Shown here: positions 11,885-35,294 of the stretch, in pieces
How the letters are laid out: the number at the start of each line of letters is the position of its first letter
How positions within the stretch are numbered: the stretch's first letter is position 1
Assembly (NCBI GenBank): GCA_963737525.1
Contig: CAVTTD010000040.1
Span: 11,337 to 75,336, forward strand
Length of the DNA stretch: 64,000 nucleotides
Reading direction: 5' to 3'
Origin: an uncultured Actinomycetota bacterium
Lineage (GTDB): Bacteria; Actinomycetota; UBA4738; HRBIN12
Notes under the pieces: generated by a model
What the model saw: only the letters and a program-made list of their open reading frames with translations
Database searches by the model: none
Told to the model about the DNA's origin: nothing
Position numbers and translations under genes: made by a program

Positions 11885-11886
11885 GC

Positions 11887-13986: not shown

Positions 13987-14017
13987 CGTCGTCGGTACCC
14001 CGAGGTAGCGTTCGGCC

Positions 14018-15614: not shown

Positions 15615-17720
15615 TTACCCGGCCTCCGGAACCGAGAGCCGTGTCGGGACGGTGCCGCGCAATGTCGTTCCGCTCCCGGTTGTGCTCGTGATCTCCAAGG
15701 TGCCTCCGAGAGCGTCCAGGCGGTCGGCGATCCCTTGAAGGCCGGTCCCGTGAGTCGTCGTCGTCGGGCTCGAATCCCACGCCGTCGTCGGCGACCTCGA
15801 AACGGAGCTCCCCATCGCTCTGACGCAGCCGGATCTCGACGGAGGAGGCGTCGGCGTACTTCGCCACGTTGTTGAGCGCCTCGAGACAACAGAAGTACAC
15901 GGCCGACTCCACGTCCTGGCCGTACCGGCCGACGCCGTCTGGTTGCACGGTCGACGGGAACGGGAGACTTCCTCGCCTGGGCCTCCAGGGCGGCGGGCAA
16001 ACCCTTGTCGGCGAGCAGCGGCGGGTAGATGCCGCGGGCGAGGTCGCGCAGATCCTCCAGGGTCTCGGTCGTCTGGCCTTGCAGCTCCTCCAGCATGGTC
16101 CGTGCCTTCGCCGGGTCGCGTTCGAGCAACCCGCTCGCGAGGCGGAGCTTCACCGAGAGCGCCACGAGCTGCTGCTGGGCGCCGTCGTGGATGTTCCGCT
16201 CCAGCGCGCGGGCTCGCTCGTCCTGCGCGCTCACGATCCGGCGGCGCGATTCCCGGAGGTCCTCGATCAGGCGGACGTTCCTGAGCACCAGGCCCGCCTG
16301 TGCGGCCATGTCGCGCGCGAGCTTCGCCTTCGTCGGGTTCATCGGATCGTTCGCCGCCAGGGAGACGGTGAGCGCACCGAGGAGCTCACCCTGATGTCTG
16401 ACCTCGAACGCATCGTCGCCTCCGAAGTCGGGGAGATCGTCGTCTCGGACGGGCAGGTTCCGGGTCGGCGCGACATCGGGGGGCCAGGACGCCTCAGCGC
16501 GCATCTCGTTCCCGATGCGCAGCCAGACCCGCGCCGCACGCGCGCCGGTCGCCTCACCGAGGAGCTGCGCCATCCGCGGGAGGACGTCCTCCGTCGAATA
16601 GGTCTCGCCCACGCGCTCCGCGAACTCCGACAGGACCTCGTACGGCGTCGATCGCTTGCCGTAGACGATCCTGTTCGCCCATCGTTGTGCCCGTTTGCGG
16701 ACCAGGATGAATCCGATCGCGAGCACCGCACCGATGACGATCATCGGGACATCGACGACGTCTCCGCCGCCCAGGCCGATCAGCGCCACCGGAAGGAAGA
16801 CGGCCAAGAGGGCGACGGCGGCGATGAAGCCGGCCACCAGGAGTCCGTACTGGACGGTCTTCTTCACGACGACATCGAGGTCCCAGAGACCGTGGCGAAG
16901 GATCGCGATGCCGCAGACCGTCGGGATGCCGAGGAACATGCCGATGATGAAGCGCGAAGAACGCGAGGCCCGACACGATGCTTTCGTCGTTGACGACGCC
17001 GGTCGAAGAAGAGGCCGAAGGAGAGCACGAGGACGATCCCGAGGAAGACGCCGAGGAAGGCCAGCCACCTGATCTGTTGCCGCTCGAGCTGAGCGGCGCG
17101 TCGGTACCGCTGGATCAGGGAGACGACGGAGATCAGTGCGCCGAAGAGCCACGACCAGACCAGCGACGGTCGTGATCGCTTCGATCGCCGGCTTCCAGGA
17201 CGAAGGGAGCCCGATCGGGTTCGCCACAGGTCTCGGGAGCTCCGCGAAACCCGCTTCGAGGGGCCCGGGCGTGAGGGCGAACGCGATCATCATGACCGCA
17301 TAGGCGACCAGCATCACGCGCAGCAGCCAGCCCCACCGCCGGGACAGTGGCCGGCCGGTCGGGAAGATGAGGAACAGGAAGGCGAGCGGGCCGAACATCG
17401 CCGCGAATCCGACACGGCCCACCCACGCCGCCGCCGCGAGGAGGGGCAGGTCCCGTTGCTGGGCCAGGCTCGCGTACGAGCCCGCGAGGATGCTGATGGA
17501 TGCGGAGAGCCCGACCCAGGCGAACAGCCACCCGACGCGGTTCCCCGCCTGTCGCGACGTGATCAGAGCTCCGACGGTCGCGTAGAGGAGGATCGCGAAT
17601 ACCGTGAAGGCGTATTCCCCGAGGTTGAAGCCGCTTCGCCAACGTGTTCACGACCACGTACCCGGCGGTGAACGCGACCGAGAGGCCCCAGATCGTCCAC
17701 GCGAGACGCCGCTGGCTCAT
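15615..17720 (-). pseudogene. Membrane sensor histidine kinase, paralog 1 (multi-TM N-domain, GAF, HisKA_3, HATPase), at least 5 frame switches
   Basis: FPTGRPLSRRW, HGLWDLDVVVKK, YGKRSTPYEVLSEFAERVGETYSTEDVLPRMAQ (GAF), ERNIHDGAQQQLVAL (H-box), YFCCLEALNNVAKY, GLQGIADRLDALGG. Pieces lie in ORFs 17133..17720, 15407..17422, 14884..15948 and 15615..15815. Confidence 0.75.
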
Positions 17721-19872
17721 CGGGTCTCCTCGATCACCGGGAGGCTGCCGTTGACCGCGGTGCCCTCACCGGGCGCGCTCCGGATCTCGAACGTGCCGCC
17801 GAGCGCGGCGAGTCGGTCGGCGATCCCCTGGAGTCCCGAGCCGCGCTCGGCGGTCGCCGGGTCGAAACCCCGCCCGTCGTCGGACACCGTGAAGTTGAGG
17901 GTGCCGTTCCGCTGCGCGAGCCGGACGGTAGCGGCCGTCGCCTCCGAGTACTTCGCCACGTTCTGCAGGGCCTCGAGGCAGGAGAAGTAGACGGCCGCCT
18001 CCGTCTCCTGCGGGTAGCGGCCGATCCCGTCCGATTCGACCACGATGCCGACGGCGGACTTCCGAGCCTGACCTTCCAGAGCCGCGACGAGGCCCCGATC
18101 GGCGAGCACCGGCGGGTAGATCCCGCGTGCGAGGTCGCGGAGGTCCTCGATCGCTTCACCGGTCTCGGCTTTCGCTTGTTCGAGCATCTCGACCGCCTTC
18201 GAAGGATCCGCCGGCACGAGACGCTCCGCGAGCCCCAGCTTCACGGAGAGCGCGACGAGCTGCTGCTGCGCGCCATCGTGGATGTTCCGCTCGATCCGGC
18301 GGCGTTCCTCGTCTTGCGCGTTGACGATCCTCCGCCGGGACTCGCGGAGCTCCTCGATGAGGCGGACGTTCCGGAGCACGAGGCCGGTCTGCGACGCGAG
18401 GTCGCCGACGATCCGCTCCTTGGAGGGGTTCATCGGATCGCTCGGGCGCATCTCGAGCGTGAGAGCACCGAGCAGCTCGCCCTGATGGCGGATCTCGACG
18501 GCCGTGTCTTGGAAGTCGGGGAGCTCGCCATCGTGAGCGGGAAGTGACCGGCTCCCGATCGCCTCCGTGGGCCACGCGGCCGCCGGGCGCATCTCGGAGC
18601 CGACCTTGAGCCACACCCGCGCTGCGTTCGCTCCGGTGGCCTGACCGATCAACTGCGCCATGCGCGGCAAGACGTCCTCGGTCGAATACGTCTCGCCGCT
18701 CGTTCCGAGAACTCCGAGAGCACTTCGTAGGGGGAAGCGCGGCCGCCGTAGACGACGCGATCGGCGATCCTCCTCGCCAGTCGGTAGGCGGGGATCACGA
18801 GGAGCCCGAACGCGGCTCCGAACAGCAGGAGCAGGGGAGGGCGGTCGTACAACGAAGGCACGAGCGATCCTCCCAACAGCAGGGCGCCCAGTCCCGCGAT
18901 CGCGAGCAGGAGCAAGACCAGGATCGCGAACACGATCGTCTTCTTGATGACGAGATCGAGGTCGTACAGGCGGTACTTCAGGACGGCGACGCCCATCGCG
19001 ATCGGAACCCCGACGCCGATCAGCGAGAAGATCACACCGAAGAACACCTGAGGACCGATGGATCGATCGAATCGCTCTCCGAAGATGAGGCCCGTCGCGA
19101 GGGCGAGCAGAAGGGAGGCGATCACCGCGACGGCGATGAAGGCGAGCCATCGGATCTGCTGCCTCGACTCACCCTCCGACCGTCGGTACCGCAGCACGAG
19201 CGACGCGATCGAGAGGGGGATCGAAGCGAGCAAACCGATCCACCCGATCCCACCGGTGATCTCGACGATCGGACGGATCGCCTCGAGCCCGAACGGGTTG
19301 GCAACCGCGTACCCGGTCTCGACCTGGAGCGATCCCGGACCCAGTGCCGTTCCCAGCGATGCGATCGACGCAGACGCCACCACGATCCACGGCACCAGTC
19401 GCCAGCGTGGGCTCACGACATGGCCAGTTGGATACAGAAGCGCCAAGACGAGAAGCGCGGAGAACGCGACGGCGTAGTCCCATGTCCCGAACCACGCGGC
19501 GACCGCGCCGAACGGGAGGACGCCGGGATCGATCTCCAAGGTGTACTTGGCGTACGTCTCGGTTGCCTGCGCCAACGCGAAGGCCAGCCCGACCGTCAAC
19601 ATGATCCAGCCCATCGGGTTCCTCGGGTTCCTCGAGGCGAGGATCGCCCCGACGGTCGAGTAGCCCAGGATCGTGAGGAGGACCACCGGCAGGAACACGA
19701 AGTCCTCCGTCGTCAACTCGTCGCCGGAACCACCGACGACGAACACCGTGATCGCCGCGAGGACCAGCAGGATCGTGAGCGCCCACAGCAGCCACGGCCA
19801 CCGAGATCTCGACGATCGGCGCCGCTCGTCCACCGCGAGCGAGTTCAGGTGCGTGCGCTCCTGTTCGTCCAT
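17717..19872 (-). pseudogene. Membrane sensor histidine kinase, paralog 2; one frame switch near 18700
   Basis: N-terminal TM domain in ORF 18649..20412 from MDEQERTHL (YPTGHVVSPRWR, YRLYDLDLVIKK). GAF/HisKA_3/HATPase in ORF 17717..19150 (GETYSTEDVLPRMAQ, ERNIHDGAQQQLVAL, YFSCLEALQNVAKY). ATGA overlap with the paralog 1 start at 17717-17720. Confidence 0.8.
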
Positions 19873-19956
19873 GTCGCCGAATCGTCCCACCGGGTGCCCC
19901 GCGGGCCAAGGGGGCCGACCTGCGGTTCTCCGTGCGGGAACACCCTGCGGGGGGGT

Positions 19957-20482: not shown

Positions 20483-21148
20483 CTAAGACTGATCGCGGAG
20501 GAACGCGAGCACCGCCATCACCCGGCGGTGCACATCGGGCTCCTCGGTCAGTCCGAGCTTGTGGAACAGCGAGTTGATGTGCTTCTCGACGGCACGTTCC
20601 GTGAGGAACAGCGACTTCGCGATCGCGGCGTTGTTCTGCCCCTGGGCCATGTGGCCGAGCACCTCGCGCTCCCGGTCGGTCAATCGAGCGAGCGGCGAAT
20701 GCGCGAGGTGCTCCTTGGCCGCGACGAGCGCCTCGACGATCTTCGGGTCGAGGACGCTCCCGCCGCGGGCCACCTCGGTCAGGGCCCGCACCAGCTCCTC
20801 GACGTCGGCCACTCGCTCTTTCAACAGGTAGCCGAGGCCGGCCGCGCCGTCCTTCAGCAGGTCGTAGGCGTACTCCTCCTCCGCGAACTGCGACAGCACC
20901 ACGACGCCGATGTCGGGATGGGACGCGCGGATCTGCTTCGCGCCCCGGATCCCCTCGTCGGTCCCGCTCGGCGGCATGCGGATGTCGGTGAGGACGGCGT
21001 CCGGCCCGTGTTCGTCGACGGCGGAGAGCAGCTCATCGAGGCTCGCCGCCATGCCGACGACCTCGATCTCGTCGGCGGTCGCGAGGAGAGCGGCGGTGCC
21101 TTCCCGCACGAGGTAGTTATCCTCGGCGAAGACCACCCGCAGCGGCAT
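20483..21148 (-). CDS. NarL/LuxR-family response regulator
   Basis: Receiver (VVFAEDNYLVREG, VLTDIRMPPS, VVVLSQFAEEEYA) plus LuxR HTH (LTDREREVLGHMAQGQNNAAIAKSLFLTERAVEKHINSLFHKLG). ATG 21148 preferred over GTG 21163. Confidence 0.85.
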   Translation of the reverse strand: MPLRVVFAEDNYLVREGTAALLATADEIEVVGMAASLDELLSAVDEHGPDAVLTDIRMPPSGTDEGIRGAKQIRASHPDIGVVVLSQFAEEEYAYDLLKDGAAGLGYLLKERVADVEELVRALTEVARGGSVLDPKIVEALVAAKEHLAHSPLARLTDREREVLGHMAQGQNNAAIAKSLFLTERAVEKHINSLFHKLGLTEEPDVHRRVMAVLAFLRDQS

Positions 21149-21186
21149 GCGCGGATGGTACACGCGAGGAAGTTGGGGGCGGTTCA

Positions 21187-22473
21187 GTGACGATCAGGGT
21201 GGTGCTCGGGGAGGACAACGTCCTCGTCCGTGAGGGCGTGCGAGCGCTTCTGAACTCCTACGACGACATCGAGGTCGTCGGGGTCGCGGAGGACGCGCCG
21301 ACGCTCCTCGCGACGGCGGCGGAGCACAGCCCCGACGTCGTCGTGACCGACATCAAGATGCCGCCGTCCTTCCAGCTCGAGGGGATCGACTGCGCCCACG
21401 CGATCCGTGAGCGCCATCCGGAGACAGGTGTCGTGGTGCTGTCCGCGCACGACGACGAGGAGTACGCGATCGCCCTGCTCGGGAAGGGCCACAGCGGGCT
21501 CGCGTACCTCCTCAAGGACCGGATCGCGCAGGGCGACGAGCTCGCCCGCGCGATCAGGGAGGTGCGGAGCGGCGGGAGCGTCGTCGACCCCACGATCGCC
21601 GAGCGTCTCTCGGGGCGGGCCGAGTCCCAGGAAGAGGACCGCGTCGTGCTCGACATGATGGCTCAGGGTCTTGGCTACGAGGCGATGGCGGCCGCCCTGG
21701 GCACGACCCAAGAGGCGGTGGACGGGCGCGTGACGATGCTCTTCCGGCGGATGGCCGGTGACGACGGAGCCGGCACCGGCCTGCTGGGGGAGTTCAAGAA
21801 GCTGCACGCGGCGGTCGTCGAGCAGTCGGCGACCGCCACGTCCCTCAAGTCCTACGTGCCGTCGCAGTTCGTGGACGCGCTGGCTCGCGGCGGGGACGCC
21901 GCCAGCCAGCGCGAGCTCGAGGTGACCATCCTGTTCAGCGACATCCGCGGGTTCTCGACGATCGCGGAGCGACTCACGGCACGGGAGAGCGGCGAGATCA
22001 TCGGCCGTCACCTCGGCGCCATGGCCGAGGTGATCTCCGAGCACGGCGGCACGATCGACAAGTTCCAGGGCGACGCCGTGATGGCGGTCTTCGGTGCTCC
22101 GGAGCCATCCGAGGACCACGCGGAGCGGGCGCTTCGGTGCGCGCTCGCGATGCAGCATCGCCAGTGGGAGCTGAACGCGCAGGGATGGGGGACGGACGCC
22201 GTCGAGGCGCTCAACGTCGGGATCGGGCTGAACACCGGCGTCGTGATGGCCGGCGCGATCGGCGGCGGCGGGCGGCTCGAGTACACGGTGATCGGCGACG
22301 CGGTCAACGTCGCGCAGCGCCTGCAGTCCGAAGCCGGCGGCGGCGAGGTCGTCGCCGCGGCCTCGACCGTCTCGGCGGCGCCCTCGGTCGCCGCCGAGCC
22401 GATCGGCCCGCGTCTCGTGAAAGGGCGCGAGGAGCCCGTGGACGTGTACCGCATCCTCGGAGTCCCCGGATGA
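21187..22473 (+). CDS. Response regulator: NarL-type receiver + LuxR-like HTH remnant + class III adenylyl cyclase domain
   Basis: Receiver is paralogous to the divergent NarL gene (VVLGEDNVLVREG, VVTDIKMPPS, VVVLSAHDDEEYA, GLAYLLKDR, GGSVVDP). HTH-like DRVVLDMMAQGLGYEAMAAALGTTQEAVDGRV. Cyclase motifs VTILFSDIRGFST, KFQGDAVMAVFG, IGLNTGVVMAG, YTVIGDAVNVAQRLQ. Intact 428-aa ORF. Confidence 0.85.
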   Translation: MTIRVVLGEDNVLVREGVRALLNSYDDIEVVGVAEDAPTLLATAAEHSPDVVVTDIKMPPSFQLEGIDCAHAIRERHPETGVVVLSAHDDEEYAIALLGKGHSGLAYLLKDRIAQGDELARAIREVRSGGSVVDPTIAERLSGRAESQEEDRVVLDMMAQGLGYEAMAAALGTTQEAVDGRVTMLFRRMAGDDGAGTGLLGEFKKLHAAVVEQSATATSLKSYVPSQFVDALARGGDAASQRELEVTILFSDIRGFSTIAERLTARESGEIIGRHLGAMAEVISEHGGTIDKFQGDAVMAVFGAPEPSEDHAERALRCALAMQHRQWELNAQGWGTDAVEALNVGIGLNTGVVMAGAIGGGGRLEYTVIGDAVNVAQRLQSEAGGGEVVAAASTVSAAPSVAAEPIGPRLVKGREEPVDVYRILGVPG

Positions 22474-24525
22474 GCGACGCTTCGATCGACTCGCGACCGG
22501 CCCGCTGGCCCTGGTCGATCCTCGCCGGGTTCCTGATCACCGCCGGGATCGCCTCGATCTTCGTCGTCCGCAACGGCGAGTCGTTCGGCGAGCAGGTCCC
22601 CTACATCATCGCGTTCTCGATGTTCGGCGCCGTCGGCGCGCTGATCGTGAGCCGTGAATCGAGGAACCGGATCGGGTTGCTGCTGCTGTGGACCGCCGGC
22701 ATCACCGCCTTGTCCTTCGCGTCCCAGGAGATCGCCACCTACCTCATCCGGCGGGGGGACCACGGCTTCCTGGTCGGCGTCATCGCCATCTTCGGCAGCG
22801 CAGGGTGGCTCTTCGGGATCCTGCCGGCGATCTTCCTCCTCCCGATCCTGTTCCCCACCGGGAGGCCGCACTCACGGCGGTGGCGGCCGCTGCCGTGGAT
22901 CGTCCTCGGGATGCTCGGGTTCCTCGCGATCGGCGTGATCTTCGGGACCCGGATGCTCACCGACGCCAACGACGTGGCGCTGATGCGCAATCCGCTCTAC
23001 ATCCCGGCGCTCGGTGAGCTCGGTCCGATCTGGGACTTCGGCGGCTGGTTCCTCATCCTGCTGATCGCGTCCGGTGCGTCCCAGGTGATGCGGTTCGTGG
23101 CTTCCGAGGGGGTCGAGCGGCAGCAGATCAAGTGGTTCGCGTTCGCGATCATCGCCTTCGTCGCCTACCTGGTCGTCTCGGACCTGATGCACTTCTCCGG
23201 CCTCGCCGAGTCGATCGCGAGCGGCATCTCGTTCATGTTGTTGCCGGTCGCGATCGGGGTCTCGGTCCTGCAGTACCGCCTCTGGGATCTCGACGTCGTC
23301 GTGAAGAAGGCCGTCGTGGCCGGCGTGCTGGTCGTCCTCGCGCTCGCGGTGTACGCCGGGGCCGTCGCGCTCGTCGGCGTCCTCGCCTCGGACCGAGAGT
23401 CGACGGTGACGCTGTTCCTCGTCGCGCTCGCGCTCGGCGATCGCGTTCCGGCCCGTGATGCGGGTGGCTCGGCGCGTCGTGGACCGGCTCGTCTACGGGG
23501 AGCGGGCGACCCCGTACGAGGTGTTGACGGAGTTCTCGGAGCGGGTGGGGACCTCCTACGCGACGGAGGACGTCCTCCCGCGGATGGCCCAGGTCCTCGG
23601 GGAGGGGTCCGGAGCCGAGGTGGCGCGCGTGTGGCTCCGGTCGAGCCGCCGCCTCCTCCAGGCGGCCGTGTGGCCGGCCGATGCGACGACCCACGATCCG
23701 ATCCCGGTGTCCGAAGACGCCGTGCTCGGTCCTTCGGGAGAAACGACCGTCGAAGTGCGTGACCGCGGCGAGCTGCTCGGGGCACTGTCCGTCCGGATGT
23801 CCGCCTCCGACCCGATGAACCCCGCGAAGGAGAAGCTGGTCCGCGACCTCGCGGCGCAAGCGGGCCTCGTCCTGCGGAACGTCCGGCTCGTCGAGGATCT
23901 CCGTGCGTCGCGCCAGCGTCTGGTCGCCGCCCAGGACGAGGAGCGGCGTCGCTTGGAGCGCAACATCCACGACGGCGCCCAACAGCAGCTCGTCGCGCTC
24001 GCGGTCAAGGCGCGGCTCGCACGGCAACTCACGGAGCGCGACCCCGCCAAGACCGCCGAGATGCTGATCCAGATCGAAGCCGAGACCCAGACCGCGCTCG
24101 AGGACCTGCGGGATCTCGCCCGAGGGATCTACCCGCCGCTGCTCGCCGATCGGGGTCTCGTCGCCGCCCTGGAGGCGCAGTCGCGGAAGGCGTCCGTGCC
24201 CGTGAGCGTCGAGTCGGACGCCGTGGGCCGCTACTCGGCCGACGTGGAGGCCACCGTCTACTTCTGCACCCTCGAGGCCCTGCAGAACGTCGCCAAGTAC
24301 GCCGACGCGGACGGCACCGTGATCCGTCTGTTGCAATCGAACGGCAGCCTCTCGTTCGAGGTCGTCGACGAGGGCCGAGGCTTCGACCCGGATGCGGTCG
24401 CCACCGGGACCGGTCTCCAGGGGATGGCCGACAGGCTGGCCGCCGTGGGAGGCTCTCTCGAGATCCGGTCGGCGCCCGGCCGAGGCACCACGGTCGCCGG
24501 ACGCGTACCGGTCACCGCCGCCTGA
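22470..24525 (+). pseudogene. Membrane sensor histidine kinase, paralog 3; one frame switch near 23440
   Basis: ATGA overlap with the upstream cyclase-RR. TM domain in ORF 22137..23762 from MSDASIDS (FPTGRPHSRRWR, YRLWDLDVVVKK). GAF/HisKA_3/HATPase in ORF 23455..24525 (YGERATPYEVLTEFSERVGTSYATEDVLPRMAQ, ERNIHDGAQQQLVAL, YFCTLEALQNVAKY). Confidence 0.8.
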
Positions 24526-24548
24526 TCTCGGAAGGAACGATCGAGGAG

Positions 24549-25313
24549 ATGGGATCCACCTACGCACCGGGCGTGTCTCAGGGGCGGCTGGCCTTCCGCC
24601 TCGTCGGCTGGATCCTCGGAGTGCTCACGATCGGCTACTCACTGTTCCTCGTCGTGCTCTCGATCGTGTCCAGCGACCCCACGAACACGATCCACCGTTT
24701 CCACTTCCTGTCGGGCCTCGCCGGCGGGGGACTGATCGGCGTGTTCTCGATCGTCCTGGTGATGCGGCCGGGCTGGACGTCCGCCTTCCACGTCCTCGTC
24801 GCCCAGGCGATCGCGTGGACGATCGGCGGGTTGATGGGTGGTGATCTCCTCACCGGCTTCTACGTCACCGGACCGATCGGGGTGATCGTCTTGCTGCTGC
24901 TGCACCCCGACCCCCGCTCGCTCCTCCGGTTTCCCGGCCGACCGAGCATCGCGTTGATGATCTATGCCGTGCTCGCGACGATGCCGGCCTGGATCTACGC
25001 GGTGACCGAAGCGGAGCTCCAGCACGGACCGGCCGCGGACCCGCATGTCCAGATGCACCACTGGTCGGGTGTCGCCGTGGCCGCGCTCTCGATCGCGGGC
25101 GCCGGGATCGCGACGTCTCTGCGCGGTCTCGGCTGGGAGTTCGCGAGCGGGGCGACGTCGATCGCGGCGGTCCTCTTCGGCGTGGCCGGCCTCGCGTTCG
25201 CCGAGTACGCGGGCGCGCCGCCGAGGGGATGGTCGTGGCTCGCGGTCGCCGCGGGGGTCGGATTCTGGCTCCTCGCCCGTATCGAGGCGGCCAGGGAGGC
25301 ATCCACCCGGTGA
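24549..25313 (+). CDS. Polytopic membrane protein, unknown function
   Basis: 254-aa ORF with about 7-8 hydrophobic spans, 23 nt after the HK3 stop. I recognise no family. Confidence 0.55.
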   Translation: MGSTYAPGVSQGRLAFRLVGWILGVLTIGYSLFLVVLSIVSSDPTNTIHRFHFLSGLAGGGLIGVFSIVLVMRPGWTSAFHVLVAQAIAWTIGGLMGGDLLTGFYVTGPIGVIVLLLLHPDPRSLLRFPGRPSIALMIYAVLATMPAWIYAVTEAELQHGPAADPHVQMHHWSGVAVAALSIAGAGIATSLRGLGWEFASGATSIAAVLFGVAGLAFAEYAGAPPRGWSWLAVAAGVGFWLLARIEAAREASTR

Positions 25314-25480
25314 GGTCGCAGGGCCGTTCCCCGTTCCGCCGTTTCGAACGGTGGCTCGTCGGTACCTTCATGGCCGTGCTCGTGTTCGTGCTGGAGCGAC
25401 TCGTGATGCGTCAGATCAAGAAGAAGGAGCGGGCGCGCTCGGAGTCGACGACCGCGGCGGTCACGGTGGGAGAGGAGTAG
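25311..25480 (+). CDS. Small hypothetical protein with one hydrophobic helix and a basic tail
   Basis: GTG 25311 overlaps the upstream stop (GTGA). WLVGTFMAVLVFVLERLVMRQIKKKER. Supported only by position in the gene array. Confidence 0.3.
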
Positions 25481-25483
25481 TCC

Positions 25484-26281
25484 GTGCATCGATGGTGGGT
25501 GTTCCTTCACGTCGTCGGGGTCTTCGGCTTCCTGATGGCGCACGGCGTGTCGGCCTACGTCACGCTCCGACTTCCGAAGGAGCGCGACCCCGCGCGTATC
25601 AGCCACCTGCTCGAGCTCTCTGCGTCCTCCGTCGGCTTCATGTGGAACTCGATCGGCCTGCTCCTCGTGGGAGGCATCCTCGCCGGCTTCACGGGTCACT
25701 TCTGGGGGCAGGCGTGGATCTGGGCGGCGATCGTCGTCCTCGTCGCCGTCGTGGCCGCGATGTATGCCATGGGGACGACGTGGGCCGCGCGGCTGCGGAC
25801 GATCTCGGGCGCGATGGCAGGGGGCACCGAGGCGGTCTCCGAGGAGCAGTTCGAGGAGATCCTCGGTTCGAAGCGCCCGTACTCGATCGCGGCGATCGGG
25901 TTCGCCGGATTGCTCGTGATCCTCTGGCTGATGATCTTCAAACCGACGCTCGGGTTCGGTGGGACGGAAGCCGGATGTCCCGTTTCGCCCGGTGCCTCCG
26001 TGACGGTCTGCGCGTTCGACGACCAGGGCTTCTCGAGCGATCGGCTGACCGCGCCGGCGGGCGAGGCGTTCGGGCTGGTCTTCGACAACGAAGACGATGG
26101 CGTGCCGCACAACGTGGCGATCTACACGGACGACTCCGCGGCGGAGTCGCTGTTCGTCGGCGACCTCGTCGACGGGCCCAAGACCGTGACCTACGACGTG
26201 CCGGCCCTCGATCCCGGCTCGTACTACTTCCGATGTGACGTCCATCCGCAGATGAACGGCACCCTGGAGGCGGCGGCCTAG
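25484..26281 (+). CDS. Membrane-anchored cupredoxin (4-TM N-domain + type-1 copper domain)
   Basis: N-terminal hydrophobic domain (WWVFLHVVGVFGFLMAHG...). C-terminal plastocyanin/azurin-like domain with ligand pattern VPHNVAI ... YYFRCDVHPQMNG (His, Cys-x2-His-x2-Met). Confidence 0.75.
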   Translation: MHRWWVFLHVVGVFGFLMAHGVSAYVTLRLPKERDPARISHLLELSASSVGFMWNSIGLLLVGGILAGFTGHFWGQAWIWAAIVVLVAVVAAMYAMGTTWAARLRTISGAMAGGTEAVSEEQFEEILGSKRPYSIAAIGFAGLLVILWLMIFKPTLGFGGTEAGCPVSPGASVTVCAFDDQGFSSDRLTAPAGEAFGLVFDNEDDGVPHNVAIYTDDSAAESLFVGDLVDGPKTVTYDVPALDPGSYYFRCDVHPQMNGTLEAAA

Positions 26282-27568
26282 ATGTCCTACCGAACGATCG
26301 TCGTCGGCACCGATGGCTCGCCCACCGCGACGGTGGCCGTCGAGGTTGCGCAGAAGCTCGCGAAACGTCTCCACGGCAAGCTCGTGCTCGTCGGCGCGCT
26401 CGACGCCTACGGCGTCACCCGGCAGCCCCTGCAGACCGCTCTCTACGAGGCCTCGGAGGCCGCGCGGGCGAAGAAGGTCGATGCGATCGCGGAGCTGATC
26501 GAGGGGACGCCGGGAGAATCGATCCTCGCGGCCGCCCTCAAGCACGACGCCGACCTGATCGTCGTCGGCAACCGCGGCATGGGCCAGGCGACCCGGTTCC
26601 GGCTCGGGAGCGTGCCCGACTGGATCGCGCACGACGCGCCCTGCGATCTCCTGATCGTCGACACGACCGGCCGCGCCGGCCCACGGGAGCCCGCTCCGCC
26701 CTACTCGCGGATCCTGGCGGGGACGGACGGCTCGGGGACGGCGACCGAAGCCGTCCGCAAGGCCTACACGCTCGCCTCGGTGTACGCGGGGACCGTCACG
26801 CTCGTGCATGTGGGCGATCCTCTGATCGGCGCCATCAAGCTCGAGGAGGTCGCGTCGACCCGGCCGGAGGACGTCGAGGTCCAGAAGCGAACCGTCGAGG
26901 GAGACCCCGCTCAGCGCATCTGTGAGCTGGCCGAAGCCGAAGCCGTGCAACTCGTCGTGGTGGGGAACAAGGGGATGTCGGGTGTCCGGCGGTTCCTGGG
27001 ATCCGTGCCCAACAAGGTCGCGCACGAAGTGCCCTCGGACGTCCTGATCGTGAAGACGGTGGATCGTTCGGTCGAGGACCTCGTCGCCGGACACGGGGGG
27101 TTGGTGAACGTCGACGGGCGGCAGCTGGCCGTGTACCGCGACGAGAACGGGCAGACGTACGAGCTCACACCTCGCTGCACCCACATGGGGTGCACGATCG
27201 ATTGGAACGACACGGCCAAGACCTGGGACTGCCCGTGCCACGGATCGAGGTTCGCCGTCGACGGATCGGTCGTGCGCGGCCCTGCCGCCGAAGCACTCGA
27301 ACGGTTGGGAGGTACGGCTCCCGCCGGAGAACGAGCGCCGGATGCCGAGGGAGCTCCGACGCCGACACCGACGCCGTCCGCCGGTCGCGGCGCATCGCGG
27401 GGGCGCCGGGAAGGAGCGGTACGTCGTGGTGGGCGCGAGCCTCGCGGGTGCCACGGCCGCCGCGACCCTGCGCGAGGAAGGATTCGACGGCGAGGTGGTT
27501 CTGATCGGCGCGGAGCCTTCGTTCCCGTACGAGCGGCCACCCCTCTCCAAGACGTTCCTCCGAGGTGA
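26282..27568 (+). CDS. Tandem USP domains fused to a Rieske [2Fe-2S] domain (3' end uncertain)
   Basis: USP1 IVVGTDGSPTA...VVGNRGMGQATRFRLGSV. USP2 ILAGTDGSGTA...VVGNKGMSGVRRFLGSV. Rieske CTHMGC...CPCHGSRF. Recognisable sequence ends near 27305; the remaining 80 aa of the ORF are low-complexity and overlap the reductase gene. Confidence 0.75.
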   Translation: MSYRTIVVGTDGSPTATVAVEVAQKLAKRLHGKLVLVGALDAYGVTRQPLQTALYEASEAARAKKVDAIAELIEGTPGESILAAALKHDADLIVVGNRGMGQATRFRLGSVPDWIAHDAPCDLLIVDTTGRAGPREPAPPYSRILAGTDGSGTATEAVRKAYTLASVYAGTVTLVHVGDPLIGAIKLEEVASTRPEDVEVQKRTVEGDPAQRICELAEAEAVQLVVVGNKGMSGVRRFLGSVPNKVAHEVPSDVLIVKTVDRSVEDLVAGHGGLVNVDGRQLAVYRDENGQTYELTPRCTHMGCTIDWNDTAKTWDCPCHGSRFAVDGSVVRGPAAEALERLGGTAPAGERAPDAEGAPTPTPTPSAGRGASRGRREGAVRRGGREPRGCHGRRDPARGRIRRRGGSDRRGAFVPVRAATPLQDVPPR

Positions 27569-28622
27569 GTCGACGATGCAGGAGGCGATGGTCCGGCCGG
27601 AGGCCTTCTACGCCGACAACCGCATCGAGACCCGGTTCGGCACGACGGTGGTCGGCGTGGACGCGACCGAGAAGACGCTCGCGGTCGCCGGCGGTGACGC
27701 CGTGTCCTTCGACAAGCTCTTGATCGCGACCGGCGCGCGCAACCGCCGCTTCCCGATCCCGGGGATCGATCTCGAAGGAGTGCTCGACCTCCGGACCCTG
27801 GGCGATGCCGCGAGGATCCGAGCCGAGATGGTGCCGGGCCGCCGGGTCGTGCTGGCCGGGATGGGATTCATCGGGTCCGAGGTGGCGGCGTCGCTCCGGC
27901 AGCGGGGCCTCGAGGTCCACGTCGTCGCGGGCGGGAAGGCTCCGTTGGATCGGGTCTTGGGCGAGGACGTGGGTCGCGTCATCGAGGGGATCCACCGCGA
28001 CCACGGCGTCGAGATGACGTTCGACGATCAGGTCGCCGGCTTCGAGGGGAACGGGCGCGTCCGGACGGTGAAGTCCGCGAGCGGTCTCAGCCTGCCGTGC
28101 GACTTCGTCGTGCTCGGCCTCGGCGTGGAGCCCGTCGCAGGGTTCTGCGACGGGTCGGGGATCGACGTGGACGACGGCATCACGGTCGACGAGTACTGCC
28201 GGACGAGCGTCGCCGGCGTCTTCGCCGCCGGCGACGTCGCCAATCACTACCACCCCGTGTTCGGTCGGCGGATCCGGATCGAGCACTGGAACAACGCGCT
28301 GGCCCAGGGACGTGTCGCGGCCCTCAACATGCTGGGCCGCGACACGCCCTACGACGAGATCCACTGGTTCTGGTCGGACCAGTACGAGCACACGATCCAA
28401 TACGCCGGCTACCACCGCGAATGGGACGACCTCGTGATCCGCGGGAGCCTCGAGTCGCGGAGCTTCGCGGCGTTCTACCTGCTCGAGGGCCGGGTCCAGG
28501 CGGTGGTCTCCGTCGATCGTCCCGCCGACGTCCAGGATGCGATGGGCATCATCCGAGCCGGCGGCATGGCCGACCCCGCGAAGCTCCGCGACGAGGCCGT
28601 CGAGCTCGCCTCACTAGGATGA
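27342..28622 (+). CDS. FAD-dependent NAD(P)H:ferredoxin reductase (putidaredoxin-reductase-like)
   Basis: YVVVGASLAGATAA (FAD GxGxxG), PYERPPLSK, LLIATGARNRRFPIPG, VVLAGMGFIGSEVAA (NAD fold), FAAGDVANH. The start could instead be GTG 27426 (AAGGAG 9 nt upstream), or the protein could be fused to the Rieske ORF. Confidence 0.8.
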   Translation: MPRELRRRHRRRPPVAAHRGGAGKERYVVVGASLAGATAAATLREEGFDGEVVLIGAEPSFPYERPPLSKTFLRGESTMQEAMVRPEAFYADNRIETRFGTTVVGVDATEKTLAVAGGDAVSFDKLLIATGARNRRFPIPGIDLEGVLDLRTLGDAARIRAEMVPGRRVVLAGMGFIGSEVAASLRQRGLEVHVVAGGKAPLDRVLGEDVGRVIEGIHRDHGVEMTFDDQVAGFEGNGRVRTVKSASGLSLPCDFVVLGLGVEPVAGFCDGSGIDVDDGITVDEYCRTSVAGVFAAGDVANHYHPVFGRRIRIEHWNNALAQGRVAALNMLGRDTPYDEIHWFWSDQYEHTIQYAGYHREWDDLVIRGSLESRSFAAFYLLEGRVQAVVSVDRPADVQDAMGIIRAGGMADPAKLRDEAVELASLG

Positions 28623-28670
28623 GCGGAGGCCGAGGAGGTGCGCCGGGATGATCATCGGCCGGGAGATGAG

Positions 28671-29096
28671 ATGACGAGCGATGTCGAGGCCCTCCGCAAG
28701 GTCCGCTTCTTCGAGGAGCTGACCGACGACGATCTCTCGCGTGTCGCGAAACTCGGTCAGCGACGCACCTACGCGGCCGGCGACGCGCTCGTCGAGCGCG
28801 ACTCCGACCGCGGCGGGCTCTTCGTGATCCTCTCGGGTCGAGCGCAGGTCGAGGTCGGCGGAGCCGTCCACGACCTGGTGCCCGGCGATTTCTTCGGCGA
28901 GATGGCGTTGCTCGGTCACACGCGCCGGTCCGCGAGCGTCACGGCGGCGGAGCCCGTGGAGGCGTTGGTCATCGAGACGATCTACTTCGACCCGTTCCTG
29001 ATCCAGAACCCGAGCGTCGCGGTCGCGATCCTCCACGGTGTCGTGGAGCGCCTGCGCGAGGTACAGGAGCGCGTCGATAGCGCCGGCTCCGCCTAG
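28671..29096 (+). CDS. Stand-alone cyclic-nucleotide-binding (CAP effector) domain protein
   Basis: LRKVRFFEELTDDDL...GDFFGEMALLGHTRRSASVTA is the canonical cNMP-binding cassette. No HTH or other output domain follows. Confidence 0.8.
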   Translation: MTSDVEALRKVRFFEELTDDDLSRVAKLGQRRTYAAGDALVERDSDRGGLFVILSGRAQVEVGGAVHDLVPGDFFGEMALLGHTRRSASVTAAEPVEALVIETIYFDPFLIQNPSVAVAILHGVVERLREVQERVDSAGSA

Positions 29097-31442: not shown

Positions 31443-32139
31443 ATGAGGGCCCTCCGAGCGATCCTGTCCGCCGTCGCCCTCGTGGTGTTGCTCCCGGCGA
31501 CCGCCGCGATCGCCCAGGTATCGGTCGACCCTTCCGTCACTCCGGAGATCAACACCGGCGGCTGGATCCACGGGCTCGCGATCCTGCTCGGCGTGCTCGG
31601 ACTCATCGTCATCCTGATGCTGGTGGCCGCCTACGTTCGCTTCGCACCGCGCTTCTCGACCGACGAGTCGACCCTGAAGGTCGTGCGCGCCGACCGTGTT
31701 CGCCCCGGCGAGGAGCTCCCTCGACGCACCGTGGACATCAAGGAGGCCGTTCCGGTGGTGGTCGCGCCGCCGCCCCTGCCGCAGCCGGCCGGTGTCGCCG
31801 CGGCCGCTGCGCCCGCGCCTGCCGCCGCTCCCGCGCCCGCCGCCGCTCCCGCACCCGCCGCACCTGCACCGGCAGCTCCCGCCCCCGCCGCGGCCGCTCC
31901 CGCCGCGCCGGCCGAGCCAACCGCTGAGGCGCCCGGCCCAACCGGCCGCCGAGGCACCCGCACCCGCTCCCGCACCGGCCGCCCCTGCCGAGCGAGTCGA
32001 GGTCGCGCTCGACCAGGAGGTCTTCGATCAGACCTTGAAGGAGCTCCTCGACAAGGGGACCGACAAGCGTGTCGCGGAAGGGCAGGCGCGTCGCGCGGCG
32101 ATGATCGCCGCGCGCAAGAAGGCTGCCGGCGAGGCCTAG
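31443..32139 (+). pseudogene. Secreted/membrane protein with a long Ala-Pro repeat linker and a conserved-looking basic C-terminal helix; one frame switch within the repeat (about 31900-31945)
   Basis: Signal-like N-terminus MRALRAILSAVALVVLLPATAAIA, TM GLAILLGVLGLIVILMLVAAYV, (A/P)n tract. The C-terminus ERVEVALDQEVFDQTLKELLDKGTDKRVAEGQARRAAMIAARKK is in ORF 31696..32139. Confidence 0.5.
31795..31990 (+). repeat. Imperfect 18-nt tandem repeats encoding APAAAP-type units
   Basis: GCGCCTGCCGCCGCTCCC (31815-31832), GCGCCCGCCGCCGCTCCC (31833-31850) and degenerate further copies. Coding low-complexity tract. Confidence 0.7.
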
Positions 32140-32165
32140 CCTCGCCGAGCGCGTAGCCTGTCGGG

Positions 32166-33244
32166 ATGGACGCCACCCGCGTCGACTGGTCCATGGGGTC
32201 CCAAGCCGCCCGTCTGGCGGATTGGGACGTCGCGCTCGCGATCGGCCGCCGGGTCGCCGGACCCGGCGTCCGCGTCCCGCCCGCCGATCGGGCACGGATG
32301 CGCGAGGACTTCGCGGAGCTCGTCACGTTCGCCGAGGAGAAGATCGCCGACTTCACCTCGCTCGATCCCGGTGGGTTCCGATCCCGCGCATGGGTCATGG
32401 GCAGGGGCGAATGGATCCGCGCGAACCTGGGCGGGCTCCAGCGGATGCTCGAGCCGCTGGCCGGGCCGGATCCTCGCCAAGCAGTCCGGCCACGGCACGC
32501 TCCGGCGGAAGGCGCTGGGGGCCCAGGCCGGTGGGCTCCTCGGCTACGTCTCGAGGAGGGTGCTCGGGCAATACGACGCCTTCCTCCCCCCGGATGACGA
32601 GGGGCTCCTCTACTTCGTCGGGCCCAACGTGGGCGAGGTGGAGCAGCGCTTCTCCCTCCCATCCCGTGACTTCCGACTGTGGATCGCGGTCCACGAGGTG
32701 ACCCACCGCGTGCAATTCGGGGCGGCGCCGTGGCTCCGAGGGCACATCCGAGCGCAGGTCGATCGCTACCTCGGCACGATCTCCCTCGAGTCGTCGGACC
32801 TCGGCCAGCAGCTCCGGCGGGCGATCGACGAGGTACGCGCCGGGGCTGACGTCCGAGGGATGGGCGGACTCTTCCTCCTGCTGAACGACGAGCAACGCGA
32901 GATCGTTCGACACGTGCAGGGCGTGATGTCCCTTCTCGAGGGTCACGCGTCGTTCGTGATGAACGAGGTTGCGAAGGATCACGTCCACGACCTGGCGCGG
33001 ATGCGGAAAGCGCTGTCCGAACGGAGGCAGCGCGCGGGGAGCGTGGAACGGTCCTTCCAGCGCGCGATCGGCTTCGACAAGAAGATCGAGCAGTACGACG
33101 CCGGCGAGCGGTTCGTCCGCGAGGTGGTCGCCCAGCTCGGGTATGGACGGGTTCAACCGCGCGTGGCTGGCGCCGGAGGGGCTTCCGACCGTCGAGGAGA
33201 TCGAAGAGCCCTCCCGCTGGATCGCGCGCGTCGCCGGGGGCTGA
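32166..33244 (+). pseudogene. DUF2342-type zinc-dependent metalloprotease; 2 frame switches
   Basis: HEVTHRVQF zinc motif, LLEGHASFVMNEV. Pieces lie in ORFs 32166..32597, 32371..34101 (first part) and 32969..33244. Located upstream of tilS as in other actinobacteria. Confidence 0.7.
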
Positions 33245-33245
33245 G

Positions 33246-34274
33246 ATGCCTCGCCGGCCTCCGGCGGTCGCCAGGGTGCTGGAGCGTGTCACGAAGCACG
33301 GCCCGTGAGCACGAGATGTTCGCGACCCGGGGACCTCGTTCTCGTTTCCTGCAGCGGCGGTCCCGACTCCGTGTGCCTGCTCTACTCCTTGTGGCACCTC
33401 CGGCGCCTGTTCAAGATCCGGCTCGCCGTCTTCCACTTCGATCACAAGCTCCGGCCCGACTCCGCCGAAGGACGGCGCGTACGTGCGCGGAGCTCGCCGA
33501 AGCGACTGAGAGCTCCCGTTCCATCTCCGGCTGGCCGACGACGCGCCCGTCTGAAGGGGGAATCGGTCGAGGCGTGGGCGCGCGACGGCTCGGCATGCGG
33601 CCGCCCACGACGTCGCGGCGCGACATCGGGGCGACGCGGATCGCCGAAGGGCACACCGCTGGACGACCAGGCGGAGACGGTCCTGATGGCCGCCGATCCG
33701 GGGAAGCGGCCTCGCACGGACTCGCGGGGATCTGGCCGCCGAAGGCCCCCGAGCGCGGACGTGTGCAGCCGCTCATCGACGTCGAGCGTGCCGAGTCGAG
33801 GCGTTCTGCCGGGCGCTCGGGCTCCGACCACGCGCGATCCGACGAACGAGACACGCCGACTGCTTCGCAGCTGCCATCCGACATGCAGGGCATCCCGGTC
33901 TGGAGCGCGCGACCGGACGCGAGGTCGAAGCGCCGCGGCGCTCGAGTCGCGGACGGAGATCCGCACCGATCGGCGATCGAGCCGTTGAGCCGCCGACGAG
34001 GGCATCGGGCGACGTGGGCGCGATCCGGCGAGGTGGACGGGTTCGTCTCTCGTGAGTCGTTCGACCACGACGCTGCCGTCCGAGGTCTCTCGCTCGGGTG
34101 AGCCTGGCTGCAGCGACGTTGCGCTGCTGGGCATCGCTCGACGGAGCGCGATCGAAGCGGTCCTCGATCTGGCGAACGGTCGGCCCGGCCGGAGGCGAGA
34201 TCTCTCTCGAGGGCTTGAAGGCGGTCCGGGAGAAGGAGTACGTTCGCGTTTCTCGTTCTTCCCCCGAGAGCTGA
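33246..34274 (+). pseudogene. tilS: tRNA(Ile)-lysidine synthetase; at least 4 frame switches
   Basis: PP-loop LVLVSCSGGPDS, GHTLDDQAETVLM-like segment (PLDDQAETVLM), DPTNE. Fragments are spread over all three forward frames. The end ISLEGLKAVREKEYVRV... stops at TGA 34272-34274. Confidence 0.7.
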
Positions 34275-34302
34275 TGGGTTGCTCGATGCCGAAGGGGGAG
34301 CG

Positions 34303-34882
34303 ATGAGCGCGGTCTCTACACTGACCGACTACGTGCAGGCCTACGAACCGGACATCGAACGCGTCCTGATCTCCTCCGAGGAGATCCAGGGCAAGCTCGC
34401 GGAGATGGGCGGAGCAGATCTCCTCCGACTACGAAGGCAAGTCGTTGTTGCTGGTGGGGGTCCTCAAGGGTGCGTTCGTGGTGATGGCCGACCTCGCCCG
34501 GTACGTTCGCCTGCCGCTCGAGTTCGACTTCATGGCGGTCTCGTCCTACGGCGCGGCGACCAAGACCTCCGGGGTGGTCCGGATCCTGAAGGACCTGGAT
34601 CACGATCTGGAGGGGATGGACGTGCTGCTGGTCGAGGACATCGTCGACTCCGGTCTGACGCTCAAGTACCTGCTGAAGAACCTCGCCGCGCGGAAGCCGG
34701 CATCGCTCGAGGTCGCCGCGCTGCTGCGCAAGACCGGGATCCAGAAGGTCCCGCTCGACATCCGGTACGTGGGCTTCGACATCCCTCCGGACTTCGTGGT
34801 CGGCTACGGCCTCGACTTCGACGAGCGCTACCGGAACCTGCCGTACATCGCGACCCTCAAGCCGGAGGCCTACGGCGGCTAG
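34303..34882 (+). pseudogene. hpt: Hypoxanthine-guanine phosphoribosyltransferase; one frame switch near 34411
   Basis: [18 protein letters not shown] then (other frame) [29 protein letters not shown]...[14 protein letters not shown] (PRPP motif). An extra G at 34410-34412 explains the switch. Confidence 0.85.
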
Positions 34883-34921
34883 CGGAACCGGCCGTCCGAG
34901 CGCCGGACCGTCCAACCGAAC

Positions 34922-35294
34922 GTGAAGCGGTTCGCCCTCGTCCTCGTCGCCGTGGCCGTTGCCTCTTGCGGAGGCAACGGCTCCGGCGACGGGACGTCGG
35001 GGATCCGCGGCCAGGCTTCGGCCGGGCCGCAGTGCCCCGTCGAGGTCCAGGGCTCCCCCTGTCCTCCCGTCCCCTACGAGGGGACCGTCGTCGCGACCGA
35101 CGTCGATGGCGGCGCCGAGTACACGGTCGAGACCGACGCCGAGGGCCGCTTCGAGCTCCCGCTCGAGCCCGGCACGTACGAGGTCTCGATCGTGTCCGAC
35201 ACCTCGCCTCCGATCCGCGAAGCCTCAGACGGTCACCGTCGAACCCGGCTCGTTCACCGAGATCATCGTCTCCGTCGACACCGGCATCCGATAG
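34922..35294 (+). pseudogene. Lipoprotein with a carboxypeptidase-regulatory-like beta domain; one frame switch near 35215
   Basis: Lipobox LVAVAVASC. TDAEGRFELPLEPGTYEVSI, then KPQTVTVEPGSFTEIIVSVDTGIR in ORF 34959..35294. Confidence 0.5.

Follow-up and report, generated by a model that had tools for sequence, protein, structure and literature searches.

The 64,000-nucleotide (nt) stretch of contig CAVTTD010000040.1 analyzed here (the window) comes from an uncultured Actinomycetota bacterium and has a G+C content of about 70%. At positions 21187-29096, it carries an operon-like array of seven genes with a conserved redox core of two proteins. The first core protein is a four-helix transmembrane (4-TM) protein of the family DUF2269, which is fused here to a type-1 copper domain (cupredoxin). 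The second joins two universal stress protein (USP) domains to a Rieske iron-sulfur domain and, in this clade, to a ferredoxin reductase. The surrounding genes encode a class III nucleotide cyclase with a receiver (REC) domain, a histidine kinase, two further membrane proteins and a stand-alone cyclic-nucleotide-binding (CNB) protein. The recurrence of cyclase or CNB genes beside the core in several lineages and their intact motifs suggest a link between the core and cyclic AMP (cAMP) signaling, and this link is not universal.

The conservation of the core is the best documented feature of the locus. Proteins with the USP-USP-Rieske architecture are widespread in uncultured Actinomycetota (1305 matches at E<=1e-10). 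Among the matches listed, 32 loci with a full-length protein were compared, and a DUF2269 gene lies immediately beside the USP-USP-Rieske gene in 31 of these, in genomic settings unrelated to one another and at identities as low as 40%; the sole locus without such a neighbor is a 1.2-kb contig. A stable unit consisting of DUF2269 (with or without cupredoxin) and USP-USP-Rieske, usually with a dedicated reductase, is well supported by this pattern. At 52-57% identity, the genes for DUF2269-cupredoxin, USP-USP-Rieske and the reductase form a trio with 4-nt overlaps in unrelated contexts, and other lineages hold only a cupredoxin-less DUF2269 gene with USP-USP-Rieske. Within the window clade (76-93% identity; the closest relative, L001, is at 93%; L numbers denote the loci compared), the entire array is syntenic together with its flanks, which comprise HisKA_3 kinases, a single USP, a regulator, USP-UbiB, Zincin_2, TilS, HPRT and FtsH. 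For this reason, conservation of the array inside the clade is uninformative about its function.

The domain content of the array was assigned with Pfam, which recognizes Response_reg-type REC and Guanylate_cyc in the cyclase protein, HisKA_3 and HATPase_c in the kinase, DUF2269 (weakly) and Cupredoxin_1 in the copper protein, two Usp domains and Rieske, followed by Pyr_redox_2 and Reductase_C, in the redox fusion, and cNMP_binding (cyclic nucleotide monophosphate) in the last gene. The domain calls of an initial annotation, made from the sequence without database searches, are thereby backed for REC, cyclase, HisKA_3, cupredoxin, USPs, Rieske, reductase and the cNMP domain, and its GAF and helix-turn-helix (HTH) calls are not. 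The Rieske domain finds its best matches in the Protein Data Bank (PDB) in cytochrome b6f PetC (E 2e-13) and in bc1 Rieske proteins. Its motifs CTHMGC and CPCHGS, with the extra cysteine pair of the bc1/b6f type, are invariant in 13 diverse homologues, and by these signatures the domain is assigned to the high-potential b6f/bc1 type. Two recent PDB deposits, 9rk3 and 9rk4, are small soluble proteins with annotations of similarity to b6f/bc1 Rieske proteins and are among its closest solved relatives; they may belong with the array domain to one soluble subfamily of high-potential type.

The reductase part is closest to FdR9, ArR, PdR (putidaredoxin reductase), TodA and BphA4, with E-values 50-76 orders of magnitude from chance. 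In BphA4/BphA3, TodA/TodB and HcaD/HcaC, a flavoprotein with Pyr_redox_2 and Reductase_C is likewise paired with a small Rieske [2Fe-2S] domain. Unlike these oxygenase-coupled systems, the array loci have no oxygenase component, and their Rieske domain, which carries the additional pair of cysteines found in the b6f/bc1 type, is fused to the reductase with two USPs ahead and has the 4-TM DUF2269 protein as its conserved partner. No Ring_hydroxyl_A or other oxygenase gene was found within 8-10 kb on either side of any annotated locus, and a ring-hydroxylating dioxygenase system was ruled out on this ground. The fusion occurs as a single protein of 776-785 amino acids (aa) in L001 (785 aa), L162 and L170-L174, and also in the more distant L081/P0046; where the genes are unfused, Rieske and reductase overlap by 4 nt. 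The reductase was fused to USP-USP-Rieske more than once, and the occurrence of the fusion in several lineages argues for direct electron transfer between the two parts. The protein lacks an export signal and depends on NAD(P)H, and it is therefore placed in the cytoplasm.

The USP domains have their closest PDB relatives in MSMEG_3811, TTHA0895, Rv1636 and Rv2623, with sequence similarity to 5ahw and 1tq8. These include the cAMP-binding mycobacterial USPs of the Rv1636/MSMEG_3811 kind and the ATP-binding Rv2623, whose tandem USP architecture is shared. The motif G-x2-G-x9-G(S/T) generally marks nucleotide (ATP)-binding USPs. It had been reported for the array in the initial annotation, and it is exact in the first domain (GNRGMGQATRFRLGS, x9); the second domain (GNKGMSGVRRFLGS) has x8 in the window and x9 in most relatives. 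The residues of the ATP-binding USP motif are thus present.

In the DUF2269-cupredoxin protein, the type-1 copper ligands H209, C251, H254 and M257 are invariant in 22 sequences and show the amicyanin-like spacing C-x2-H-x2-M, as in blue copper proteins. The best homologues of this protein are close ones: all 120 listed are at least 74% identical. A full-length AlphaFold2 (AF2) model (predicted local distance difference test score, pLDDT, 81) gave structural matches through the cupredoxin domain only, and this part matches auracyanin (E 7e-8) and amicyanin (E 4e-7), with a match probability of 1.0, and also plastocyanin. The array protein is like these carriers in predicted fold, His-Cys-His-Met ligands and membrane tether. 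Unlike theirs, its anchor is neither a lipid nor a single helix but a conserved bundle of four TM helices, in which four His and Met residues do not vary among homologues of 40-55% identity: H9 and H20 in helix 1, M93 in helix 3 and M150 in helix 4. Their positions would place H9 and M150 near the outer face of the membrane, and H20 and M93 near the inner face. Loops 1 and 3 are rich in Arg and Lys, and a conserved Cys pair follows helix 4. From these features (the positive-inside rule and an extracytoplasmic Cys pair), an outward orientation of the cupredoxin is predicted. The four invariant residues might bridge the membrane as a two-site relay.

The signaling part of the array begins with a protein of 428 aa, whose cyclase domain scores 87 bits against a Pfam cutoff of 21.9 and has its top PDB matches in Cya2 (2w01) and IlaC (6fht, an engineered adenylyl cyclase). 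The metal-binding Asp residues D252 (FSDIRGF) and D296 (KFQGD), the Lys K292, T367 (EYTVIGD) and N374/R378 (VNVAQR) are all present. The specificity pair is Lys/Thr where guanylyl-specific Cya2 has Glu/Gly; the Lys, not Glu, is shared with the adenylyl-cyclase form 6fht, as in adenylyl-specific class III enzymes. The REC domain (63.8 bits; aligning to NarL, DevR and VraR) is complete with E9/D10, the phospho-acceptor D55 (TDIKMPP), S86 (VLSAH) and K110 (LLKD). Because the catalytic, specificity-pair and REC residues are complete, the protein is predicted to be an active, phosphorylation-controlled adenylyl cyclase, not the catalytically dead enzyme that the initial annotation had named as a possible refutation of its proposal. 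Response-regulator-type class III adenylyl cyclases are known, e.g., cyanobacterial CyaC. The array protein likewise carries a REC domain upstream of the catalytic domain, and this catalytic domain is most similar to Cya2. It differs from the CyaC type in its N-terminal half, which is a duplicated NarL-type regulator including a degenerate LuxR-type HTH. The REC and HTH region aligns to NarL and DevR up to about residue 190. Pfam GerE gave no match to this protein at E<=0.01; the HTH that had been proposed earlier is seen only through the 49% identity over 198 aa between the N-terminal half and the neighboring NarL-type regulator, which extends through residue 189. Its recognition-helix positions are substituted; the domain is a remnant without the signature of LuxR/GerE and survives only as a degenerate paralogue of the regulator's HTH. 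Full-length relatives of the REC-HTH-cyclase are rare, with about four clusters at 50% identity among the best 150 matches of 1.84 billion representatives.

The kinase link is drawn from synteny and from what appears to be a translationally coupled cyclase/kinase pair. The GAF domain earlier assigned to the kinase did not hold: in the intact L172 orthologue, the match is below threshold (E 0.002, 19.1 bits against a cutoff of 22.4) and spans only the last 38 profile positions. The two halves of the kinase differ markedly in conservation. The sensor half (22470-23420) is 41% identical to that of L001, the catalytic half (23455-24525) is 83% identical, and the neighboring genes are 79-93% identical; the input domain appears to diverge much faster or to have been exchanged. 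Two to three more HisKA_3 kinases, paralogues of the array kinase, lie on the minus strand at 15642-19881 and are conserved in all clade relatives, which suggests that several kinases form a network with the regulator and the REC-cyclase as its targets. With NarL-type regulators, HisKA_3 kinases and clustered USP genes, the locus resembles the DosR/DosS/DosT system in these features.

The regulator gene diverges from the array across a gap of 38 nt. The 22 nt at 21149-21170 (plus strand GCGCGGATGGTACACGCGAGG), directly upstream of the regulator ATG, are 100% identical in five relatives, and the remainder of the divergent intergenic region (38-53 nt) is variable, with a 12-nt indel. On the minus strand, this stretch contains TACCAT 6 nt ahead of the regulator ATG, which looks like the -10 element of a leaderless regulator mRNA and is possibly a shared control site.

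The last gene of the array encodes the CNB protein, which scores 57.8 bits against a Pfam cutoff of 27.5 for cNMP_binding. Its phosphate-binding cassette, FGEMALLGHTRRSASV, is intact, aligns to PKG, PKA and MlotiK1, and contains the G-E...R-(S/T)-A signature, which bears out the earlier prediction of a cyclic-nucleotide receptor as far as the sequence goes. The fold and the cassette G-E...R-S-A are shared with MlotiK1 and with PKA, PKG and CRP. Unlike these, the CNB proteins are stand-alone (139-174 aa) and have no effector domain, and their partner is suggested by the gene neighborhood only. The protein is 84-96% identical across its best 120 homologues listed; all of these being at least 84% identical, they do not sample the distant relatives suited to a reciprocal neighborhood test.

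Of the roughly 18 lineages with the core, about four have a cNMP gene next to it and two to three have a cyclase gene there. In L081 (60% identity), the cNMP gene is adjacent to and divergent from the core. In L007, L088, L089 and L090, the genes for a CNB protein of 174 aa and a DUF2269 protein of 160 aa lie side by side, with the CNB stop touching or overlapping the DUF2269 start, and the two are convergent with USP-Rieske; this stop-to-start arrangement of a CNB gene and a membrane-protein gene is reminiscent of MlotiK1. L005 encodes, 0.8 kb from the core, an MFS transporter with a fused cNMP domain, and in L008 a membrane cyclase gene follows USP-Rieske after 90 nt. The same tblastn queries gave one cNMP match and no cyclase in 142 control loci (1.7 Mb), which encode Rieske-only proteins among the matches listed in genome and metagenome scans.

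These elements can be assembled into the following model. NAD(P)H would reduce the FAD, and electrons would pass from FAD to the covalently tethered, b6f-like Rieske [2Fe-2S] cluster. The Rieske domain would dock on the cytoplasmic face of DUF2269, in which His20/Met93 on the inner side and His9/Met150 on the outer side would hold cofactor or metal sites, and electrons would cross the membrane to the outward-facing blue copper centre and from there reach an external acceptor. At a first level of control, both USP domains would bind nucleotide, either ATP or possibly cAMP. At a second level, in the window clade, the membrane histidine kinase would phosphorylate the REC domain of the Lys/Thr class III adenylyl cyclase, and the stand-alone CNB protein would read the resulting cAMP and act on the DUF2269/USP-Rieske core, much as a detachable version of the CNB domain of a cyclic-nucleotide-gated membrane protein might do. 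The divergent NarL-type regulator, a paralogue of the REC-HTH half of the cyclase, would provide the transcriptional output of the same kinase network. Transmembrane electron export fed by cytoplasmic flavoproteins is known from MsrQ with Fre and from NOX/FRE/STEAP. The proposed logic is the same, from NAD(P)H through flavin and a membrane bundle with paired ligands to an extracytoplasmic redox centre. This is an analogy only; unlike those proteins, DUF2269 has no detectable sequence or structural relationship to them. The full model, i.e., a nucleotide-gated, NAD(P)H-driven Rieske donor and a DUF2269 relay to outside blue copper under CNB-supplied cAMP control, is put forward tentatively, with somewhat less than even confidence. 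The proposal of the initial annotation, in which a phosphorylation-controlled cyclase gates a membrane redox chain within one operon, is partly supported overall.

A number of observations weigh against this model. On the redox side, the topology of the DUF2269-cupredoxin protein is a prediction, and the DUF2269 bundle alone (AF2 pLDDT 78) found no PDB match at E<=0.001, only generic or de novo four-helix bundles. With the cupredoxin predicted outside and the USP-Rieske-reductase in the cytoplasm, a direct Rieske-to-copper step would be impossible; the reductase-Rieske-blue copper chain proposed earlier is supported in its first part by the fusion and needs an additional transmembrane step in its second. 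Many DUF2269 partners have no cupredoxin, so copper is not essential to the core. The class of cAMP-binding USPs represented by Rv1636 has been reported as restricted to three genera (PMC11107214), and cAMP binding by the array USP domains is not supported by this literature. On the signaling side, most core lineages have no cNMP or cyclase gene nearby, and no cyclase, kinase or cNMP gene was found beside the core in the loci at 52-57% identity. The contrast with the control loci is a rough statistic because most of these belong to other phyla. Linkage of the REC-cyclase and kinase to redox genes is seen in a single synteny block only, formed by the window clade and L176. In L176 (60% identity), the array in this block (5759-10923) is reduced to the genes for REC-cyclase, the small protein, cupredoxin and USP-Rieske, without those for the kinase, polytopic protein, reductase and cNMP protein. 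The conserved neighborhood expected by the initial annotation therefore stands for the DUF2269/USP-Rieske core and, in some lineages, for cNMP or cyclase genes, and for the REC-cyclase and kinase it shrinks to this single block. All the evidence for the model is, moreover, at the level of sequence and predicted structure.

In a rival reading, two separate units are simply juxtaposed: a signaling unit (regulator, REC-cyclase, kinase and possibly the cNMP gene) acting elsewhere, and a redox unit of DUF2269-cupredoxin and USP-Rieske-reductase. Co-directionality and tight spacing would then stem from the compactness and synteny of this part of the chromosome rather than from a shared pathway. The window does lie in a housekeeping region (topA, tmk, ftsH, lysS, clpC), every clade relative shows synteny all the way from the upstream kinases to FtsH, which makes conservation there hardly informative, and the redox unit does occur on its own at 52-57% identity. 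Against such a separation, cNMP or cyclase genes recur beside the core with different flanks (L008, L081 and the L088 group), L176 retains the REC-cyclase immediately upstream of the small protein, cupredoxin and USP-Rieske genes despite the loss of four genes, and internal promoters would find little space in intergenic gaps of 0-48 nt. Two independent units are regarded as an unlikely reading. Within L176, the regulator (77%), REC-cyclase (73%) and USP-UbiB (72%) are more similar to the window than the cupredoxin and USP-Rieske proteins (only 53-59%), and the comparison of L176 with the window clade makes the part between cyclase and UbiB look like a variable cassette.

The role of DUF2269 itself can be read differently. 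A Rieske ferredoxin with a BphA4-type reductase is the usual electron supply of an oxygenase, and DUF2269 could be a membrane oxidase or hydroxylase like PuuD or HemJ, for which USP-Rieske-reductase serves as the dedicated electron donor; the cupredoxin would be an accessory of some lineages, and no electrons would be exported across the membrane. The pairing of DUF2269 with USP-Rieske is invariant whether or not a cupredoxin is present, as such an enzyme would have it. In addition, PMC4562309 reports a distant match between the profiles of DUF2269 and DUF989, which forms the membrane part of PuuD, a urate oxidase fused to cytochrome c; this match is marginal (E 0.15). The DUF2269 bundle has only about 155 aa and four helices, no conserved substrate-related genes lie nearby, and the Rieske domain belongs to the high-potential b6f/bc1 type rather than to the low-potential type of oxygenase ferredoxins. 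An enzymatic function is considered rather unlikely.

Metal handling was also weighed. DUF2269 might move Cu(I) like CopD or Ctr, or the cupredoxin might oxidize or reduce Fe or Cu for uptake like the EfeO and FtrB cupredoxins, with the cytoplasmic flavo-Rieske protein as electron sink or source. The invariant DUF2269 residues are indeed His and Met, the neighboring polytopic protein is His-rich, and the copper domain belongs to Pfam Cupredoxin_1, with Brucella FtrB (8vuk) and Bacillus Cupredoxin_1 proteins among the further matches of its model. However, electron carriers typically have such a complete His-Cys-His-Met type-1 site, no conserved permease, P-type ATPase or metallochaperone gene lies nearby, and many homologues have no cupredoxin; a function of this kind is judged highly unlikely.

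The layout of the array is compatible with a single transcription unit. Plus-strand coding is unbroken from 21187 to 29096, where a convergent minus-strand gene follows, as indicated by frame analysis of the G+C content at third codon positions (GC3). Read directly from the sequence, the cyclase and kinase genes overlap by 4 nt (ATGA, 22470-22473), 23 nt precede the ATG of the polytopic protein gene at 24549, the polytopic and small protein genes overlap by 4 nt (GTGA, 25310-25313), 3 nt precede the GTG of the DUF2269-cupredoxin gene at 25484, and the ATG of USP-USP-Rieske at 26282 follows without a gap. The longest spacer, 48 nt, lies between the reductase part and the cNMP gene (ATG 28671), which has a GGGAG Shine-Dalgarno sequence. 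These values agree with those of the initial annotation except for the GTGA overlap, which is -4 and not -3 nt. The CTAG overlap of the array's last stop codon with that of the convergent USP-UbiB gene is present at 29093-29096, as described before. Three terminator-like hairpins were found where 2.6 were expected from shuffled sequence, and none at a junction, which accords with the earlier view; T-tailed terminators are rare at 70% G+C, and this is weak evidence. A promoter scan found no sigma-70-type sites and is uninformative at this G+C content. The spacing of -4 to +48 nt, the conserved gene order and the absence of terminator-like hairpins at the junctions would, as sequence evidence, be in keeping with a single operon, and the tight spacing is kept in all intact clade relatives. 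The array was confirmed as co-directional, with seven genes instead of the eight counted before, because Rieske and reductase form one fused gene in intact relatives.

Two of the seven genes are interrupted in the window. The kinase, earlier taken as one gene at 22470-24525, consists of two open reading frames (ORFs), 22470-23762 in frame 0 and 23455-24525 in frame 1, and GC3 places the frame switch at about 23350-23425. Deletion of base 23438, an extra C according to the alignment with L001, yields a kinase of 684 aa, and those of intact relatives have 690-693 aa. The Rieske/reductase junction, which had been described as overlapping or unresolved, is in fact a frameshift inside the low-complexity linker. 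The two ORFs overlap by 226 nt, and in a restoration test any 1-nt deletion within 27250-27419 restored an ORF of 779 aa. Similar defects affect housekeeping genes of the window. Compared with L162, frameshifted genes lie in 31443-35291 and 15642-15963; Zincin_2 (32166-33238) is spread over three frames, HPRT (34303-34879) and two other genes are spread over two, and the gene of a CarboxypepD_reg protein (34973-35291) is among those split. The rate is roughly one frameshift per kb, which is typical of an unpolished long-read assembly, and any ORF-based reading of the window therefore needs this caveat. Because the housekeeping genes carry frameshifts of like kind, those of the array are most likely assembly errors, and true pseudogenes or overlapping genes were ruled out for the kinase and Rieske/reductase on the same ground. 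If the frameshifts were genuine, the locus would be decaying, with a split kinase and a split Rieske/reductase. The insertion at 23438 does lie outside any homopolymer, and GC3 stays high on both sides of it. Nevertheless, the essential and housekeeping genes throughout the window are interrupted in the same way, the sister long-read contigs L161 and L175 are fragmented likewise, and all short-read relatives are intact, so that genuine decay has only a very slight chance of being correct. Two open frames of the window join unrelated domains, at 11884-13986 (MFS transporter and thymidylate kinase) and at 44225-46534 (type III pantothenate kinase and lysyl-tRNA synthetase); these may be true fusions or read-through in an error-prone assembly.

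Table 1. Features of the array and its immediate flanks, in window coordinates.
Feature	Position	Strand	Basis or remark
Single-domain universal stress protein, 135 aa	20050-20457	+	Pfam Usp, E 4e-27; member of the upstream synteny block
NarL-type response regulator (REC and LuxR/GerE HTH)	20483-21148	-	Pfam Response_reg and GerE; ATG at 21148 from alignment to the L162 orthologue
REC-HTH-cyclase protein (HTH of degenerate LuxR type; class III nucleotide cyclase), 428 aa	21187-22473	+	Pfam; PDB alignments
Polytopic membrane sensor histidine kinase (HisKA_3 and HATPase_c)	22470-24525	+	Start overlaps the cyclase stop; interrupted by a 1-nt insertion
Extra C that frameshifts the kinase	23438	+	Alignment to the intact L001 orthologue
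Polytopic His-rich membrane protein, 254 aa, no family assignment	24549-25313	+	tblastn matches in window-clade relatives only
Small single-helix membrane protein, 56 aa	25310-25480	+	GTGA overlap with the preceding gene; kept in the reduced array of L176
4-TM DUF2269 fused to a C-terminal type-1 copper cupredoxin	25484-26281	+	Pfam; AF2 model
USP-USP-Rieske, low-complexity linker and FAD/NAD ferredoxin reductase, 779 aa after frameshift removal	26282-28622	+	Pfam; fused orthologues
Interval holding the Rieske/reductase frameshift	27250-27419	+	L001/L002 alignment: extra base in a G-run near 27394
Stand-alone cyclic-nucleotide-binding domain protein, 141 aa	28671-29096	+	Pfam cNMP_binding; ATG at 28671 with GGGAG Shine-Dalgarno sequence
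USP-UbiB/ABC1 atypical kinase with C-terminal TM helices	29093-31273	-	Usp and ABC1 by Pfam on the L172 orthologue

The remaining genes of the region add little to the functional picture. The 254-aa polytopic protein has no Pfam match, even at E<=1 on the L172 orthologue, and for the 56-aa protein and a 240-aa downstream protein, Pfam likewise gave nothing credible at E<=1. The 135-aa USP occurs at the same position in L162, L170-L173 and L176, and the USP-UbiB gene is conserved in the window clade and in L176. In L162, an extra gene (12730-14880) for a protein of 716 aa with no Pfam match lies between the cNMP gene and the convergent USP-UbiB gene.

Each domain of the array is of a known kind, and it is their assembly and conserved pairing that is not described in the literature searched. 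This search found no description of a USP-Rieske fusion, of a function for DUF2269, or of a combination of cupredoxin, Rieske protein and ferredoxin reductase, in line with the earlier remark that no named pathway has such a composition. USP domains are among the commonest stress-associated domains of bacteria, and their biochemical outputs are mostly unknown. A tandem USP joined to a Rieske/flavin unit offers a directly assayable output, namely, NAD(P)H-dependent cluster reduction with or without ATP or cAMP. For DUF2269, an uncharacterized membrane family, the invariant pairing, the fusion to blue copper and the recurring cAMP-receptor neighborhood provide a first testable functional hypothesis. 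The cAMP link, if true, would mean second-messenger control of a redox chain at the level of proteins and not of transcription. The farthest-reaching reading, which is decidedly unlikely, is that DUF2269, as a bundle of four helices whose cofactors are ligated by His and Met near each membrane face, represents a new and minimal kind of conduit for electrons across the membrane, and that abundant uncultured Actinomycetota possess NAD(P)H-driven electron export to the outward-facing blue copper centre, switched by cAMP through a detachable CNB subunit and by the ATP/cAMP status of the USP domains. If this were true, the system would be a second-messenger-controlled pathway for redox balancing or extracellular reduction; the group of uncultured soil and sediment Actinomycetota in which it is found is widespread.

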